Position numbers and translations under genes: made by a program. A DNA stretch of 24,764 bases from Amoebophrya sp. A120 (taxonomy: Eukaryota > Protista > Dinoflagellata). The notes under the pieces are model-generated. The model had not been told where the DNA came from. It saw only the letters and a list, made by a program, of their open reading frames with translations, and made no database searches. The stretch is taken from assembly GCA_905178155.1 (NCBI GenBank), contig CAJINV010000048.1, forward strand, positions 1 to 24,764. The letters run 5' to 3'. How positions within the stretch are numbered: the stretch's first letter is position 1; each line of letters begins with the position of its first letter. Below, one piece after another: positions 869-20,063 of this stretch.

Positions 869-3800
869 ATGAAGTTCCGCCCGCTCACCGCAATACGTAA
901 AATTGCGGCGAGTGCAGTTGTAGTCGGACTCTTCAACATCGACGGTACTCAAAACCCGGCTTTGGCGATTTACCTGCGTAAGGAACACCAGGAGGCTGCA
1001 ACGGTTTCATCCGGAGCAAGCGCGCCTCCCGTAGTACCGGAACTCACTGCCGAACACCAAGGAGGAGCTGCAAGTCTTTCTTCGCACGAAAAATCATCGA
1101 ACGGAAACTACAAAATCGGAAGATCTGCTAGCCCAGCGCCACGAGGACACAATCAGCCACGACAAGTTGTTGCGAGTCGCTCGTCCACGACAACTTCCAA
1201 CAACGCTCCACGACCTGCCCGTCAACATTTGGTCCTCGAACAGAACGCAATCGAGCAGGATGGAGACGTCTTCTACACAGGACAAGATGATTTTTATGCC
1301 GACGCAGTAGATCATAGTCCTACTCCTACAGCCCTGCATTTATTCGAAACTAATAAAAGCGAAGAGGACGCTGCTCTTGGTGGGGACGAAGACTTTGAAG
1401 AATCTTCCGGCTCGGCAGAAGAGGAAGCAGATCCCAGCACCAGCGGAAAAGCCATGATTTCATCTTTACAAGAACTGTATGTCGCGCAGCAATCCACCGC
1501 ATACCACCCGCTTGAACGAAGCCCGATCACCAACGCAACCCAGCTTGCGGAGGAGGTCAAGGCCGAGATGCGATTCTGTTGGGAGAACTACCGAAAGCAG
1601 GCCTGGGGCTACGACGAAGTGTTCCCAGTGACCGGAGGCGGCCAGAACCCGCTCGGGGGACTCGGGGTTACCATCGTGGACAGCTTGGACACCTTGTACT
1701 TAATGGGGCTGCACAAGGAATTTCGAGAGGGGTTGGAGTTTGTCCGGAACGAACTGAACGTGACGGCGCCGAAAGCGGATTTTACGTCTCGAAAAGCGCA
1801 CCTAGACGATCTGCGGTTGCTAAATCGTCCAGACACTTCAGGAGGACGAGAATTGAACAAACACAGGAAAAGAGAGGAAAAAAAGTTCTCCACCTTCGAG
1901 ATCACCATTCGCGCCTTGGGTGGACTGCTCTCCGCCTACAGTCTGAGCTCCGAAAAACCGCTGCTGCAGAAGGCAGAGCAGCTGGGCGACACGCTGCTCG
2001 CAAAGGCGTTTGGGGACGTGGGGAAAGCGAATTCGCGGCACGGACTGTTTCCGGTACGAATGATTCAGTTGGCGGAGAAAAAGATGGGGAGAAAGGATAA
2101 AAGCTACGGGAAGAAATCCAAGATTCAAGATTCTCGTCAGCGGAAAAAGGCAGTAAACAAGCCGCCGCCGTCGGCTCTTCAAGTGGGATTGGTCAACTAC
2201 GGTACTGACCTGGTTTCCGGGTCGAACAGCGAAGGCGAAAAAGGCTCTTCTGGCGAAGTAGATTCCGGGGATGATGAAGAAGCTGGCGCCAGTTCTGAGG
2301 ATGAAGAAGAACCCTCTGCTCCTTCTACACCGACCGCTGCCGAGCTGAATAAAGACCGCAGCGGGAATTTGGCCGAAGTGGGCAGTTTGCAGCTGGAGTT
2401 TCGTTCCTTGGCGTTCTTCACAAAAAGGCAGGACTTCACTCGCCTCCCGGACAAGGCGGTACAGGCGCTCACCGAGGTGAGCGAACACACCGGGAACGCG
2501 CTGCTGCCGGTCGGCGTGAATCTGTGGAGTAAGCGGGGCGCCGCGCTGCAATTCATCGGATCTCGCGTCTCCGTCGGGGCAGAGGCCGACAGCTACTACG
2601 AGTACCTGCTGAAGCAGTACTTGCTGGGTGACAAGAAAGACCCAAATCTCCGCGAGGCGTTTCTGAACGCCATGGTATCAAATGTAAAAATGTCTGGGTC
2701 TGGAAGGTTGGAAACCTTGTCATGCAGGTTTTCCATGACGCGTGAGGTCTGTAATATATGACCCAGCATGACAGATTCTTCTCGACCTCTATCATGCCTC
2801 GTCTGCATGAGAAAGTCCCTCTCAGCTTGGTCAAAAGAGGAGAGCTTTTGGTAATCATGCAACACAGATTTTTGCACTATCGAGAATTAGCATGACAAGT
2901 TGCATTCTTCCAGACCCAGACATTTTTACAATCCATACATGGACGCGATGTGCGACAAGCTGGTCCAGCGCTTATGCATTGCAAATATGTCTGGGTCTGG
3001 AAGATTCTAAGATTTGTCGTGCATGTTGCGCATGACCCAGGATATCTGTAATGCACGACCTAGCATCACAGATTTTTAGAGGACTTTGTGATGCCTGTGC
3101 CGCATAAGAAATGCCCTCTCCGCGTAGCACGAACTGGAGTCCTCTTGCTGGTCATGCAATTGCAATACAATTTTTTTTTGAATCCAGAGACAGCATCAGC
3201 ATTACAAGTTGCATTCTTCCAGACCCAGACATTTTTACATTTGACAGCGCACGGCGGGGGACAAACAGTTGCTCTTCATCGGCGGCCTGGACGCGGGCGT
3301 TGTTCCGGACAACAAAATGGAGCACTTGACCTGCTTCGTCCCGGGGATGTTGGTTTTGACCCTGATGCAATTGGACGACGACGACTTGCCCCTGTCGGAC
3401 AAACGGCGCAAGACATATTTGAAAGTTGCGACCGGGGTCGCCGACACCTGCTACGAGATGTACCGGATGACGAAGACGGGACTGGCACCCGAAGTGATCG
3501 CGTTTCGCGCGAAAAACGACGCGTTCACGGACGAAATCGTCATTCCGCCGAATTTGCAGTACAGCTTGTTACGCCCGGAGGCGGCCGAGTCGTTTTTCTA
3601 CCTGCATCACTTCACGAACGACCCGAAGTACCTACCAAAGTGAAAAATGCCCCCACCCCCGAACTTGGGAGCATTTGTATTGCAAACCTTTCCACATGAA
3701 ACATTCGCCCTCTTGCATCTATCAGCATCACAAATTTTCCATGCTGAATAGCGCAAATTTGTGATGCAACGGAGCGCAACAGCAGGCGGATCTCTGATGC

Positions 3801-17397: not shown

Positions 17398-20063
17398 ATG
17401 GGTGGTGGTTCGTCCAAGCAGGGGGGCGCGGGCGGTTGCTGCGCCACCGGCGGCAATGCCAATGCGCGTCAGCCCATGGCGGAGGGTGAGGCGATGAACG
17501 CGCCGCACGCGATCACGCCGGGTATGATCGCGCAGGGCATGCCCGCGGCCATGAAGAAGTGTCCGTTCCTGGCGATGCAGGCGGAAGTGACCTATGCATT
17601 GCAAAAGTATCGTAGTCGTACTAGTATAAATTGCATGACAAATTTTGGCAAGAAGAGAAGTCGAATTTGTAATGCTGTTTTACCTTAGCAGGATGATTTG
17701 TCATGCGTATTTGCAATTAGTACGAGTGCGATACTTTTGCACAGGATATGACCAACAAGCCGACCAAGCTGAACTTGAAGATCCTGAATCCGCCGAAGTA
17801 CTATTTGGATGAGACGGATTATCGCAAGAAAAAAGTGTTACAGTTACACGTTGTGTTGCAGGAGCCGCAAGACAGACAACCTTTGTCATGCAGGAAATGC
17901 TTGCAAGCCTTGATGCTTCCTACGTATTTTCCCTTATCCTTATGATCTTTGCATTACAAGTTTTGTCTGCCACACAGAGAAAATTTGTGATGCAGAGACC
18001 CCAACACCAACAAATGTGTAACTGTAACACTTTTTTCTCGTGATACGGATTACAAGCAGGCGTTCAACAGCTTGAACTACGAGGACGTGAAGACCGACAT
18101 CAAGAAGATGCTGAAGGACTCCAAGGAGTGGTGGCCCGCGGACTACGGGCACTACGGGCCCTTCATGGTGCGCATGGCCTGGCACGCGGCGGGCACCTAC
18201 CGCACCTCGGACGGTCGCGGCGGCGGCAACACCGCGCAGCAGCGGTTCAACCCGCTGGACTCCTGGCCGGACAACGGGAACCTGGACAAGGCCCGCCGCC
18301 TGATGTGGCCCATCAAGCAGAAGTACGGCAAGCAGCTGTCCTGGGGGGACTTGATGATCCTGACCGGCAACGTCGCGATGGAGGACATGGGGCACAAGAC
18401 CTTCGGTTTCGGCGGCGGCCGCCTGGACTCCTGGGCCATGGAGGAGGACGTCTACTGGGGCGAGCCGGAGAGCTTCCACAAGGACCTGGAGAAGCAGCCG
18501 AACGAGCTGGAGAACCCGCTGGGCGCGATCGTGATGGGCCTGATCTACGTGAATCCGGAAGGGCCCGGCGCCTGCGGCGACCCGCTCCTCGCGGCCGGCC
18601 ACATCCGCACCACCTTCGGGCGCATGGCCATGAACGACGAGGAGACCGTCGCGCTGATCGCCGGCGGCCACACCTTCGGCAAGTGCCACGGCGCCGCGCC
18701 CGGCGGCACCTACCAGGGCCCCAAGCCGTCCGACGCCGCGGTGGAGGAGCAGGGATTCGGGTGGACCAGCAGCTACGGCACCGGAAAGGGCAAGGACACC
18801 ATCACGTCGGGGCTGGAAGGCGCCTGGACCGCGAAGCCCGCGCAGTGGGACCACGGCTACTTCACGAATCTGTTCAAGTACGAGTGGGAGATGCACAAGG
18901 GCCCCGGCGGCGCCAAGCAGTGGCGGCCGAAGAACGGGGAGGGAAAGGACTTGATCCCCGACGCCCACGACCCGTCGGTCAAGCACGCGCCCATGATGCT
19001 GACCACGGACTTGTCGCTCATCAAGGATCCGAGCTACCGCGAGATCAGCAAGAAGTTCCTGGACGACCCCGCGTACTTTGAGGAGCAATTCGCGAAGGCG
19101 TGGTTCAAGCTGTGCCACCGCGACATGGGTCCGCGCGGCCGGCTGCTCGGCCCCGAGGTGCCCCCGGAGCAGATCTGGCAGGACCCGGTGCCCACGCCGG
19201 CGGCCGACACGGTGATCAGCGACGAGGGCATGATTGCCGGCTTGAAGGAGCAGTTTCTCGGGTGCGGCCTGTCCGTGTCCGAGATGGTGCGCACCGCCTG
19301 GGCGTCCGCCTGCACCTTCCGCCACACCGACTTCCGCGGCGGCGCCAACGGTGCGCGCATCCGGCTCGCGCCGCAGAAGGACTGGGCGGTGAACGACCCG
19401 GAGGACTTGGGGCGTGCGCTCAGCAAGTACGAGGCGATTATCGCGGACTTCAACGCGAAGAACGCGCCCTTCCAGCTTTCCATGGCGGATGCCATCGTGC
19501 TGGCCGCGGCCGCCGCGATCGAGAAGGCGATCGCCGACGCGGGGATGAGCGTGAAGGTGCCCTTCCGCCCCGGCCGCGGGGACGCCTCCGCGGACCAAAC
19601 CGACGTCAACTCCTTCGGCCACTTGGAGCCCAAGTCGGATGCCTTCCGCAACTACAAGGCGAACGCGTACCAGATGGTGGACCGCGCGCATTTGCTGAAG
19701 ATGACCGCGCCGGAAATGACCGCCATCCTCGGCGGGATGCGCGCGCTGGGCTGCAACGCGAAGTCCGCGGGCAAGATGGGCGTTTTGACCTCCCGCCCGG
19801 GCTGCCTGACCAACGACTTCTTCGTGAACCTGCTGGACATGGGCGTCGTGTGGAAGAAGACCGCGGACGGCACCACGTTTGAGGGCAAGGACCGCAACAC
19901 CGGGGCGGTCAAGTGGACGGCGAGCGAGGTGGATCTGGTGTTCGGGTCGAACCCGGAACTGCGCGCGCTGGCCGAGTACTACGCCTGCACGGACAGCAAC
20001 GAGAAATTTGTGCAGGACTTCGTCAAGGCCTGGGTCAAGGTGATGAACAACGACCGGTTCTAA
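17398..20063 (+). CDS. katG: Catalase-peroxidase; join(17398..17592,17754..17819,18051..20063), about 757 aa
   Basis: [88 protein letters not shown] and [12 protein letters not shown]. Upstream exons supply KCPF and LNLKIL motifs typical of KatG N-termini. Very high GC3. Confidence 0.96.
17593..17748 (+). mobile_element. Introner-like intron E5 (161 nt removed, or 158 nt as GT-AG)
   Basis: TGACC at 17588-17592 and 17749-17753. TAT...ATA ends. Inverted repeat 17600-17612/17729-17741 extends imperfectly inward, plus 17633-17643/17696-17706. Confidence 0.88.
17820..18045 (+). mobile_element. Introner-like non-canonical intron E6 (231 nt removed)
   Basis: CGGAT at 17815-17819 and 18046-18050 (ACGGATTA when the ends are included). 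TATC...GATA ends. Perfect 23-bp inverted repeat 17827-17849/18016-18038. Removal gives [13 protein letters not shown]. Confidence 0.92.

Follow-up and report, generated by a model that had tools for sequence, protein, structure and literature searches.

The locus studied here raises the question of how insertions that resemble transposons came to lie within coding frames, and of how they are taken out of the message. The window, which is the whole stretch analyzed, comprises 24,764 bases of contig CAJINV010000048.1 (assembly GCA_905178155.1) from Amoebophrya sp. A120. The results bear on how introns of this kind, which number tens of thousands, move and how they are removed. We favor the reading, with a probability of about 0.6, that the six insertions (E1-E6) are non-autonomous DNA transposons that one DDE enzyme moves in trans and that are removed from RNA under the guidance of a stem.

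Six insertions in three host genes

A first-pass annotation had described the insertions as ending in TA, with inverted repeats at their termini and a 5-bp repeat on either side, and all six were confirmed at the coordinates in Table 1. Once they are removed, host genes 1, 2, and 3 have open frames of 1421, 850, and 757 codons, respectively. PF01532 was matched in three pieces in gene 1 and PF00141 was matched in gene 3, and spliced contigs exist for genes 2 and 3. The first exon of gene 2 had no Pfam match, that of gene 3 retrieved no homolog, and an atlas search with an orphan ORF at 10646-12274 gave no usable match. A public gene model, P0001 (source name Amoebophrya sp. A120), is identical to spliced gene 1 over 1226 amino acids. 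This identity, together with an end consensus that matches the one in Farhat 2021, upholds the assignment of the elements to the Amoebophrya introners.

Table 1. Coordinates of the insertions and their host genes in the window
Feature	Coordinates	Element	Flanking repeat	Exact internal motifs	Strand	Description
E1	2671..2942 with repeats	262 bp, 2676-2937	CATGG/CATGG	3		
E2	2968..3251 with repeats	274 bp, 2973-3246	GCGCT/GCGCA	4		
E3	3628..3942 with repeats	305 bp, 3633-3937	GTACC	2		
E4	15139..16154 with repeats	1006 bp, 15144-16149	GTCTG	2		
E4 extra segment	15395..16092	683 bp				Bounded by 15-bp direct repeat (15395-15409, 16078-16092)
E5	17588..17753 with repeats	156 bp, 17593-17748	TGACC	3		
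E6	17815..18050 with repeats	226 bp, 17820-18045	CGGAT	3		
Host gene 1	869..5990				+	Glycosyl hydrolase family 47 protein with long C-terminal extension; carries E1-E3
Host gene 2	13011..16574				+	Unknown protein with hydrophobic stretches; carries E4
Host gene 3	17398..20063				+	Catalase-peroxidase-like protein; carries E5 and E6

End sequences

Each of the six shows the A-tract from position 11 (position 10 in E6; AAATA in E2) and its T-tract mirror, as had been noted, and perfect pairing does begin inside the ends, at position 8 in E1, E5, and E6 and at position 9 in E4. The left end of E3 is TAC, and E2 has one mismatch in its 5-bp repeat and a right end mutated to ..ACA, which reads inward as TGT instead of TAT. 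A strict scan of the window for this grammar gave five matches (E2 fails), compared to none in each of 200 dinucleotide shuffles. Since the strict pattern was drawn from the same elements, a scan for inverted-repeat pairs with no terminus assumed served as the independent test. It found 338 pairs in 522 kb of related contigs, and TA..TA was the terminal pair in 74 of the 150 registers that had an exact 5-bp direct repeat. The shuffled-partner control gave 24 registers with a 5-bp repeat, and no terminal pair occurred there more than twice. The end consensus in the related contigs is TAT(C/G).

Besides E1-E6, these contigs provided 297 further copies in 20 end-sequence groups; the loci (93 for E5) were fetched with the E5 pattern, which biases the family counts, and copies inside one family are not independent. 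In 75 of the 303 copies, the left and right 5-mers are not identical. The first-pass annotation had named the loss of the A-tract and of the duplication in a genome-wide set as evidence against itself. In the copies from these contigs, AAA stands at positions 11-13 in 482 of 580 ends, and the 5-bp duplication is borne out by the seven empty sites described below. Its view of the A-tract and the mismatched bubble as a fixed, recognized geometry did not hold up, as three families lack the tract (0 of 76 ends) and the bubble mostly behaves as a variable spacer. Pooled pairing at positions 4-7 was 0.505, vs a within-family expectation of 0.574 +/- 0.015. Of the three families analyzed individually, one accounts for this deficit (0.277 vs 0.469), and its left and right ends are of different types; the two others showed no deficit. 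The bubble was therefore rejected as a selected structure. Both the A-tract and the bubble are frequent features but not invariant ones. Pairing of the element ends falls to background by position 40.

Insertion and mobility

The proposed check for empty sites was conducted on two pairs of homologous contigs. Of nine elements with flanks that could be located in the partner contig, seven are absent there (four more had no partner flank), and each empty site is exactly the 5-mer between the flanks. The seven represent five families. The empty sites establish 5 bp as the length of the target duplication, so a 6-bp duplication was rejected. TA as the duplicated target of a Tc1/mariner-type MITE was also rejected, since the empty sites hold the 5-mer without TA. 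The duplication shows no base preference. Orientation relative to the inferred transcript was balanced at 35:36 among 71 copies of the largest family and was 21:15 in the second (14 of 50 unassigned). The related elements are typically 110-320 bp long with inverted repeats of about 30-45 bp and no coding region. In the DNA-type run X1, element ends had a depth of 28,000-175,000 vs about 82, which is not to be read as a copy number. Both the empty sites and these highly repeated ends bear out the proposed transposon origin, and we regard it as nearly certain that the elements are transposon-derived introns.

An internal motif shared by the families

The motif AAATTTGT[ACG]ATGC was found in 288 of 290 short copies, compared to 5-13 in shuffles. 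In the window, 17 of its 18 matches lie inside E1-E6, which cover 2,229 of the 24,764 bases. It is present in all 20 end-sequence groups. Same-direction copies are spaced 31-32 bp apart among the commonest spacings in nine of the 10 named families, a spacing that may be inherited from one ancestor. The motif is absent from the literature searched, which also yielded nothing on subterminal transposase sites in Amoebophrya. Repeated subterminal binding sites are known for transposases. The arrays, with copies often three helical turns apart, may likewise be binding sites for the enzyme, and we give even odds to the motif being the DNA-binding site of the mobilizer. A shared binding motif would account for unrelated inverted-repeat families having the same ends and duplication length. 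Also, a near-universal motif could serve as bait for the protein and as a filter for an autonomous element.

The motif could instead be a splicing signal, read by a host RNA-binding factor or by an snRNA that replaces the missing U1, and its presence in both directions would give each insertion a usable copy. Consistent with this, the motif is found more widely than the A-tract, genes contain nearly all of the copies sampled, predicted folds allow internal hairpins between opposed motifs, and U1 snRNA was not detected in A120 according to the sections of Farhat 2021 considered here (PMC7789003). However, families differ in where the motif closest to an end lies and which way it points, only 33 of 73 opposed motifs at a distance of 30-38 nt in the largest family would allow the variable base to pair, and the 31-32 bp phasing fits double-stranded DNA. 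We thus consider a splicing signal somewhat unlikely.

Search for a mobilizing enzyme

Neither a transposase nor an integrase turned up in Pfam searches of 112 long frames from the related loci (148 of at least 230 amino acids, of which 113 passed a composition filter and one near-duplicate was left out) or of 49 frames from five long copies (two sub-threshold hits were ignored), and 10 window frames contained no transposase. Together these frames cover well under 1% of a genome. Thus, the long copies with a transposase or recombinase that had been suggested as a check were not found among the 112, 49, and 10 frames scanned. In appearance, the long copies are short copies with inserts and not autonomous elements. 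A further candidate, L031 2601-3540, probably arose from two separate elements paired by mistake, and the five-copy scan did not include it. The E5 end pattern had no matches in viral contigs. The proposal of one mobilizing enzyme therefore fares well on the TAT ends, the 5-bp duplication, and the internal motif common to the families, but no such enzyme was found in these frames.

The first-pass annotation had also called the inverted repeats of E1, E4, E5, and E6 unrelated. The cores (positions 15-30) are indeed unrelated between families, and E1 and E2 belong to one family (70% over 260 nt). Unrelated cores would be expected if each family were served by a separate transposase specific to the inverted-repeat core of that family, with the shared ends and motif due to common descent or to a host DNA-binding helper. 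The inverted repeat of a DNA transposon is usually a family-specific binding site, as is generally known and as found in part of Farhat 2021 (PMC7789003). Against this, at least 10 families have the same TAT ends, 5-bp duplication, and motif, five of these have recent differences in presence or absence, and the same sections report no transposase in A120. Separate transposases are therefore unlikely. A single mobilizer would probably be a DDE integrase-like enzyme. It would act in trans, cleave the element at its TAT termini, and integrate it without target selection through a 5-bp staggered cut, consistent with the duplication and the lack of target preference.

Removal from transcripts

Contigs of runs X3 and X4, whose RNA nature is the guess of the index, skip 1011 nt at E4, and an X4 contig skips 161 nt at E5 and 231 nt at E6, the last two on one contig of one run. 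Each skip equals the element plus 5 nt, in agreement with the claim of removal without GT-AG. Retention or use of canonical sites had been named as evidence to the contrary, and it was not seen in the RNA-type contigs: E4-E6 are absent from them, and the in-frame GT-AG options in E4 and E5, 3 nt shorter than the element plus 5, are not used, although contigs drop rare variants and minor GT-AG usage could escape detection. The lesson of E4 and E5 for annotators is that a GT-AG call in the A120 genome may look plausible and still err by one codon. Two intergenic bins were without depth in X3 and X4. The raw RNA reads of run X10, from another study, included 16 that matched the right end of E5 only, in another flank, and these carry no information on splicing.

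Evidence for the removal of E1-E3 comes from P0001 and from a share of words. P0001 removes E1 as 267 nt and E3 as 310 nt, and its E2 junction reads QRT, so that the right-hand variant base is kept. Of the words in window positions 1500-6000, a share of 0.80-0.81 is present in runs X3-X6, and 0.79 is expected with E1-E3 all absent; run X9, with a share of 0.05, was left out. In the related contigs, 65% of 300 junctions were open for 150 nt to either side when the element plus 5 nt was removed, compared to 39-41% at +3, +4, +6, and +7.

An ordinary, relaxed spliceosome that uses nearby GT-AG-like sites could draw on the options in E4 and E5, and most spliceosome parts are present in A120 (PMC7789003, in the sections considered). 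However, use of those options would give skips of 1008 and 158 nt where 1011 and 161 nt were observed, and GT and AG are not enriched at junctions. No equivalent cut register yields GT-AG in any of E1-E6, and registers with GT, AG, and GT-AG numbered 79, 94, and 5 of 196 in related copies, vs 84, 94, and 7 for random insertion. A canonical U2 intron was rejected on both results, and a relaxed spliceosome, largely refuted for E4-E6, is highly improbable.

Excision at the DNA level, in the nuclei that are transcribed, would also yield transcripts without the elements and without RNA splicing. Ciliates have eliminated sequences whose removal is guided by pointers. The loss here is likewise the element and exactly one direct-repeat copy, in either orientation and blind to splice sites. 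In contrast, X1 has the sampled element ends joined to their flanks and none of the three E4-E6 skip joints; its contigs show presence and not absence, and its life stage may differ from that of X3 and X4. We consider excision from DNA very unlikely.

Since removal is indifferent to orientation and to GT/AG, its machinery must read something symmetric. Structure-guided excision is what we infer, and the independence from orientation and splice sites fits it. The inverted repeats of the RNA would pair, and the stem would bring the two 5-nt copies next to each other. Cleavage at set distances from it would then take out the element and 5 nt and restore the original message in either orientation, in line with the exact lengths at E4-E6 and with the statistical indifference to orientation and splice sites; the catalyst could be an altered spliceosome or another ligase. 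Tests for selection on an RNA stem gave no clear signal. In the two largest families, pairing at positions 15-28 was as high as expected within the family (0.849 vs 0.851 and 0.929 vs 0.930). G-U exceeded A-C weakly when pooled (104:75, p 0.036), with the largest families opposite (50:23 vs 14:30), and the two strands did not differ in folding energy (101 of 196). Guidance by a stem is moderately probable. It is likely that these transposon-derived introns leave the pre-mRNA by a stem-guided route blind to splice sites.

A wider possibility is that all A120 introner families form one system, in which a previously undescribed TA-ended, 5-bp-duplicating, integrase-type transposase reads the phased motif arrays and the TAT tips, and the core may vary in sequence but stays self-complementary as the signal for a splice-site-blind cut-and-join of RNA that would precisely reverse an insertion in either orientation. 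We entertain this only tentatively. If it were true, an RNA repair route would make transposon insertion harmless at any coding position, and introns could be gained en masse with no need for splice sites.

Comparison with known systems

The sections of Farhat 2021 considered here (PMC7789003) describe A120 introner elements with TAT-N7-AAA, inverted repeats, direct repeats of 3-5 nt, non-GT-AG junctions, repeated families, and a predicted hairpin; they report no putative transposase in A120 and argue against general transposase-mediated mobility. E1-E6 are these introners: the organism is the same, the inverted repeats are present, the 5-bp repeat lies within the 3-5 nt range, and TAT-N7-AAA is found apart from the left end of E3, the right end of E2, and the tract position in E6. 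The removal of E4-E6 at junctions that are not GT-AG and their repetition in families also agree. Those sections leave the repeat at 3-5 nt with a variable position and contain no internal motif, empty-site proof, or orientation test; here, the repeat proves to be a 5-bp duplication that directly adjoins the TA ends, and one motif links the families. The first-pass annotation left open whether the consensus had been reported, and it has been, as TAT-N7-AAA in part of Farhat 2021 (PMC7789003) and as "5-bp TSD, TA/TA termini" for one family (PMC12130899). The end grammar and the class are already published, and the empty sites, the indifference to orientation and GT-AG, and the internal motif are added here.

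That one family is A120 introner family 38 of Gozashti 2025 (PMC12130899), with about 810 bp, five copies, and homology to an LTR-element protein; the main text denies it Ginger homology, termini, and duplications, contrary to the table label. Compared by description only, it has the 5-bp duplication and TA/TA termini in common with E1-E6. GingerRoot and IS3EU DNA transposons (PMC6839031, PMC10045372) have the same TA..TA termini, with an integrase-related transposase and no nucleotide preference in the duplication. They differ in a 6-bp duplication, inverted repeats of 100-150 bp instead of about 30-45 bp, and lengths of 3.9-12.9 kb. Their full-length partners encode a DDE transposase; the frames scanned here contained none. 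Nonconventional introns of euglenids (PMC11282704) have terminal pairing that draws the ends together, duplication-like repeats, non-canonical junctions, and a MITE-like origin, and the A120 elements resemble them in these features. Unlike those introns, which carry CAG/CTG at +4..6 and -8..-6 and are released as circles, the A120 elements have TAT(C/G) ends and the internal motif and lack CAG/CTG.

The extra segment of E4

E4 consists of a 323-bp family copy, equal to the family median, and the extra segment listed in Table 1, in which no Pfam domain was found. The segment is likely a nested insertion. In X1, a 683-nt skip crosses it, and its interior has a depth about 5 times the single-copy level.

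The elements and their published class

All six elements lay where the first-pass annotation had placed them (6/6), and the 5-bp repeats, TA ends and inverted repeats it described were present in each, with the exceptions of E2 seen in the table. Within the inverted repeats, an A-tract stands near position 11. The strict end grammar matched 5 times in the window compared to 0 in every one of 200 shuffles. Excising element and one 5-mer opened three reading frames: a family 47 glycosyl hydrolase, an unknown protein and a catalase-peroxidase-like protein.

The feature is real, belongs to a published system and is already known. 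Farhat et al. 2021 describe these elements, and the available text gives the A120 consensus as TAT, 7 nt and three A (PMC7789003). In the available text of Gozashti et al. 2025 (PMC12130899), A120 family 38 has a 5-bp duplication and TA/TA ends (among 42 of 58 A120 table rows), and an A120 family with these ends and duplication shows LTR-element homology. The internal motif, empty sites and orientation were not mentioned in the text available from either paper, and the motif may be visible in Fig. S19 and S25 (Farhat) and Fig. S9 (Gozashti). No later paper on the motif was found in a literature with few subscription papers. Apparently undescribed handles on an open problem are a near-universal phased motif that joins unrelated families, proof of the 5-bp duplication, and removal that depends on neither orientation nor splice sites.

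Elements and other features of the window
Feature	Position	Observation
E1	2676-2937	5-mer copies at flanks, TA ends, inverted repeats
E2	2973-3246	5-mer copies with one mismatch; right end ..ACA
E3	3633-3937	5-mer copies at flanks, TA ends, inverted repeats
E4	15144-16149	5-mer copies at flanks, TA ends, inverted repeats
E5	17593-17748	5-mer copies at flanks, TA ends, inverted repeats
E6	17820-18045	5-mer copies at flanks, TA ends, inverted repeats
Segment within E4	15395-16092	683 bp, bounded by 15-bp direct repeats
Gene 1	869-5990	hosts E1-E3
Tandem orphan ORFs	6852-7961, 8803-9876	related, 73% over 197 nt
543-aa ORF	10646-12274	intronless, cysteine-rich middle
Catalase-peroxidase-like gene	17398-20063	GC up to 0.70, far above neighbours; glycine-rich extension at start
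GC-rich repeat	24273-24764	units ~72-76 and 158 bp apart, palindrome inside, runs past window end

Related copies and end geometry

The E5 end pattern returned 93 loci in one metagenome assembly, of which 90 (522 kb) remained once 3 lying within others had been removed. An inverted-repeat scan assuming no termini gave 338 pairs, and among the 150 registers where the 5-bp repeat was exact, 74 ended TA..TA; its control gave 24 registers and no recurring terminus. A looser caller, which required TAT-like ends, found 303 unique elements, the six of the window among them. Of these, 290 were short; there were 20 end-sequence groups, and the sample was skewed toward the E5 family (111/290 short copies). 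Once the element and 5 nt were removed, 65% of junctions (n=300) stayed open over 150 nt on each side, compared to 39-41% for +3, +4, +6 and +7, and 63% for +8, which shares the frame of +5.

The left and right ends paired at 0.96-1.0 in positions 1-3 and 0.89-0.99 in 9-14, with 0.36-0.61 in 4-7 between them. The mismatched bubble proposed earlier was borne out on average but is not universal, and only the E5 family fell below within-family expectation. Likewise, the position-11 A-tract held in most ends (AAA at 11-13 in 482/580) but in 0/76 ends of three families.

Aligned over their interiors, E1 and E2 point the same way, while their outermost 10 bases look swapped left to right, and each end type of this family was found on either side. 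The segment within E4 has a depth ~5x single-copy in X1, a DNA-type run, and starts GGTT, like the insert of a long E1-family copy (L076 3416-4593); it is likely a nested retroposon-like insertion. Nesting was seen at L065 1415-1564, L012 2085-3440, L068 729-1728 and L077 2129-2941: an E5-family copy with its own 5-bp duplication lies inside another family's copy, and the other long copies hold unrelated inserts.

A phased internal motif

The first-pass annotation missed an internal motif, TGT[ACG]ATGC (context AAATTTGT[ACG]ATGC). In the window, 17/18 matches were inside elements, against a shuffle mean of 0.39 and maximum of 3 (1000 shuffles). It was present in 288/290 short copies, compared to 5-13 in shuffles, and in every end-sequence group, even those without the A-tract; one enzyme per family is the rival reading to be weighed against this sharing. 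Against this stand 765 matches outside called elements, of which 643 lie in clusters within 150 nt (373 expected) and probably belong to uncalled copies.

The motif occurs in both directions, and its first copy is usually reached 30-45 bp in from an end. Copies that face the same way often lie 31-32 bp from one another, and 9/10 named families have this among their commonest spacings; three turns of B-DNA measure 31.5 bp. Against such phasing, spacings of 18, 20, 35 and 45-48 recur as well, and common descent by itself could transmit a spacing.

Target duplication and mobility

Empty sites, proposed earlier as a check, were sought in two homologous contig pairs differing in element content (L053/L054 and L058/L072). 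For 12 elements plus the reciprocal view, both flanks were found in the partner for 9 and neither for the rest. Seven of the 9 were absent from the partner, with exactly the 5-mer left between the flanks, and 2 were common to both. Therefore, TA is part of the element, and the 5-mer represents a genuine 5-bp duplication of the target. It showed no base preference, the target being random. Since the seven belong to five families, several families have moved recently.

In L058, the shared copy (site common with L072 1155-1389) has a right end ..ACC, not ..ATA, with its 5-bp repeat intact.

Removal from transcripts

Searching proteins with the final exon of gene 1 as query gave a single match, P0001, a gene model that its source labels Amoebophrya sp. 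A120. It is identical to spliced gene 1 over all 1226 residues, given removal of E1, E2 and E3 each with one 5-mer, and at the E2 junction the right-hand variant base was retained. Removal of E1-E3 is read from this model, which is not a read, and from word share: 0.80-0.81 of sampled words of window 1500-6000 were present in runs X3-X6, where loss of all three elements would give 0.79 and loss of just one 0.93-0.94.

Four runs were compared over 14700-18400. A 1011-nt skip (E4 + 5) was seen in contigs of X3 and X4, exact even with the 683-bp segment inside, and 161-nt (E5 + 5) and 231-nt (E6 + 5) skips occurred together in one X4 contig. X3 and X4, classed as RNA by index guess, had zero depth in two intergenic bins. 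Excision at the DNA level is a rival explanation, and X1, possibly from a different life stage, speaks against it: depth was ~82 across the entire interval, element ends (summed depths 28,000-175,000) were joined to flanks, and there were 0 of the E4-E6 skip joints. RNA reads from another study under the same species label (X10, n=16) place the E5 right end (17723-17752) in another flank and are uninformative on splicing.

Relaxed canonical splicing is another rival. In-frame GT-AG alternatives, 3 nt shorter, exist at E4 and E5; these (1008 and 158 nt) were absent among the joints listed for the four runs. As claimed earlier, the junctions are non-GT-AG, with GT-AG in no equivalent cut register (0/6 elements). 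In 196 short copies, registers offered GT, AG and both in 79, 94 and 5, compared to 84 +/- 7, 94 +/- 7 and 7 +/- 3 expected for random exon insertion.

A codon model, whose training set included the window's genes, gave a confident transcript strand for 200/303 elements, with 85/85 neighbouring pairs concordant. Orientation was 35:36 in the E5 family (n=71) and 21:15 in the E1 family (14/50 unassigned), and six small families had no significant bias. Removal, read for related copies from frame restoration rather than RNA, is indifferent to orientation and GT/AG.

Proposed mobilising enzyme and excision route

In the available text of PMC10045372 and PMC6839031, TA..TA ends are also a feature of IS3EU/GingerRoot. 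Given this likeness and the LTR-element homology of an A120 family with such ends, a DDE integrase-like transposase acting in trans would mobilise the elements. No transposase was found in window frames, long frames of related loci or frames within long copies. The internal motif would be the putative binding site of that transposase; the rival reading is that it acts as an RNA signal. Removal may be gauged by distance from the terminal stem. Two ends without TA, the E2 right end and that of the shared L058 copy, suggest from sequence that the TA tip is dispensable for it.

Host genes and other features

In gene 1, the P0001 model begins 195 codons after the first ATG of the open frame. Beyond the hydrolase domain, gene 1 had no further Pfam match; the region presumably resembles a glycosyltransferase fold. 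The 543-aa ORF had no match in Pfam or Atlas, nor did the tandem orphan ORFs in Pfam. We take the C-terminal stretch of the 543-aa ORF to resemble an AP2 DNA-binding domain.
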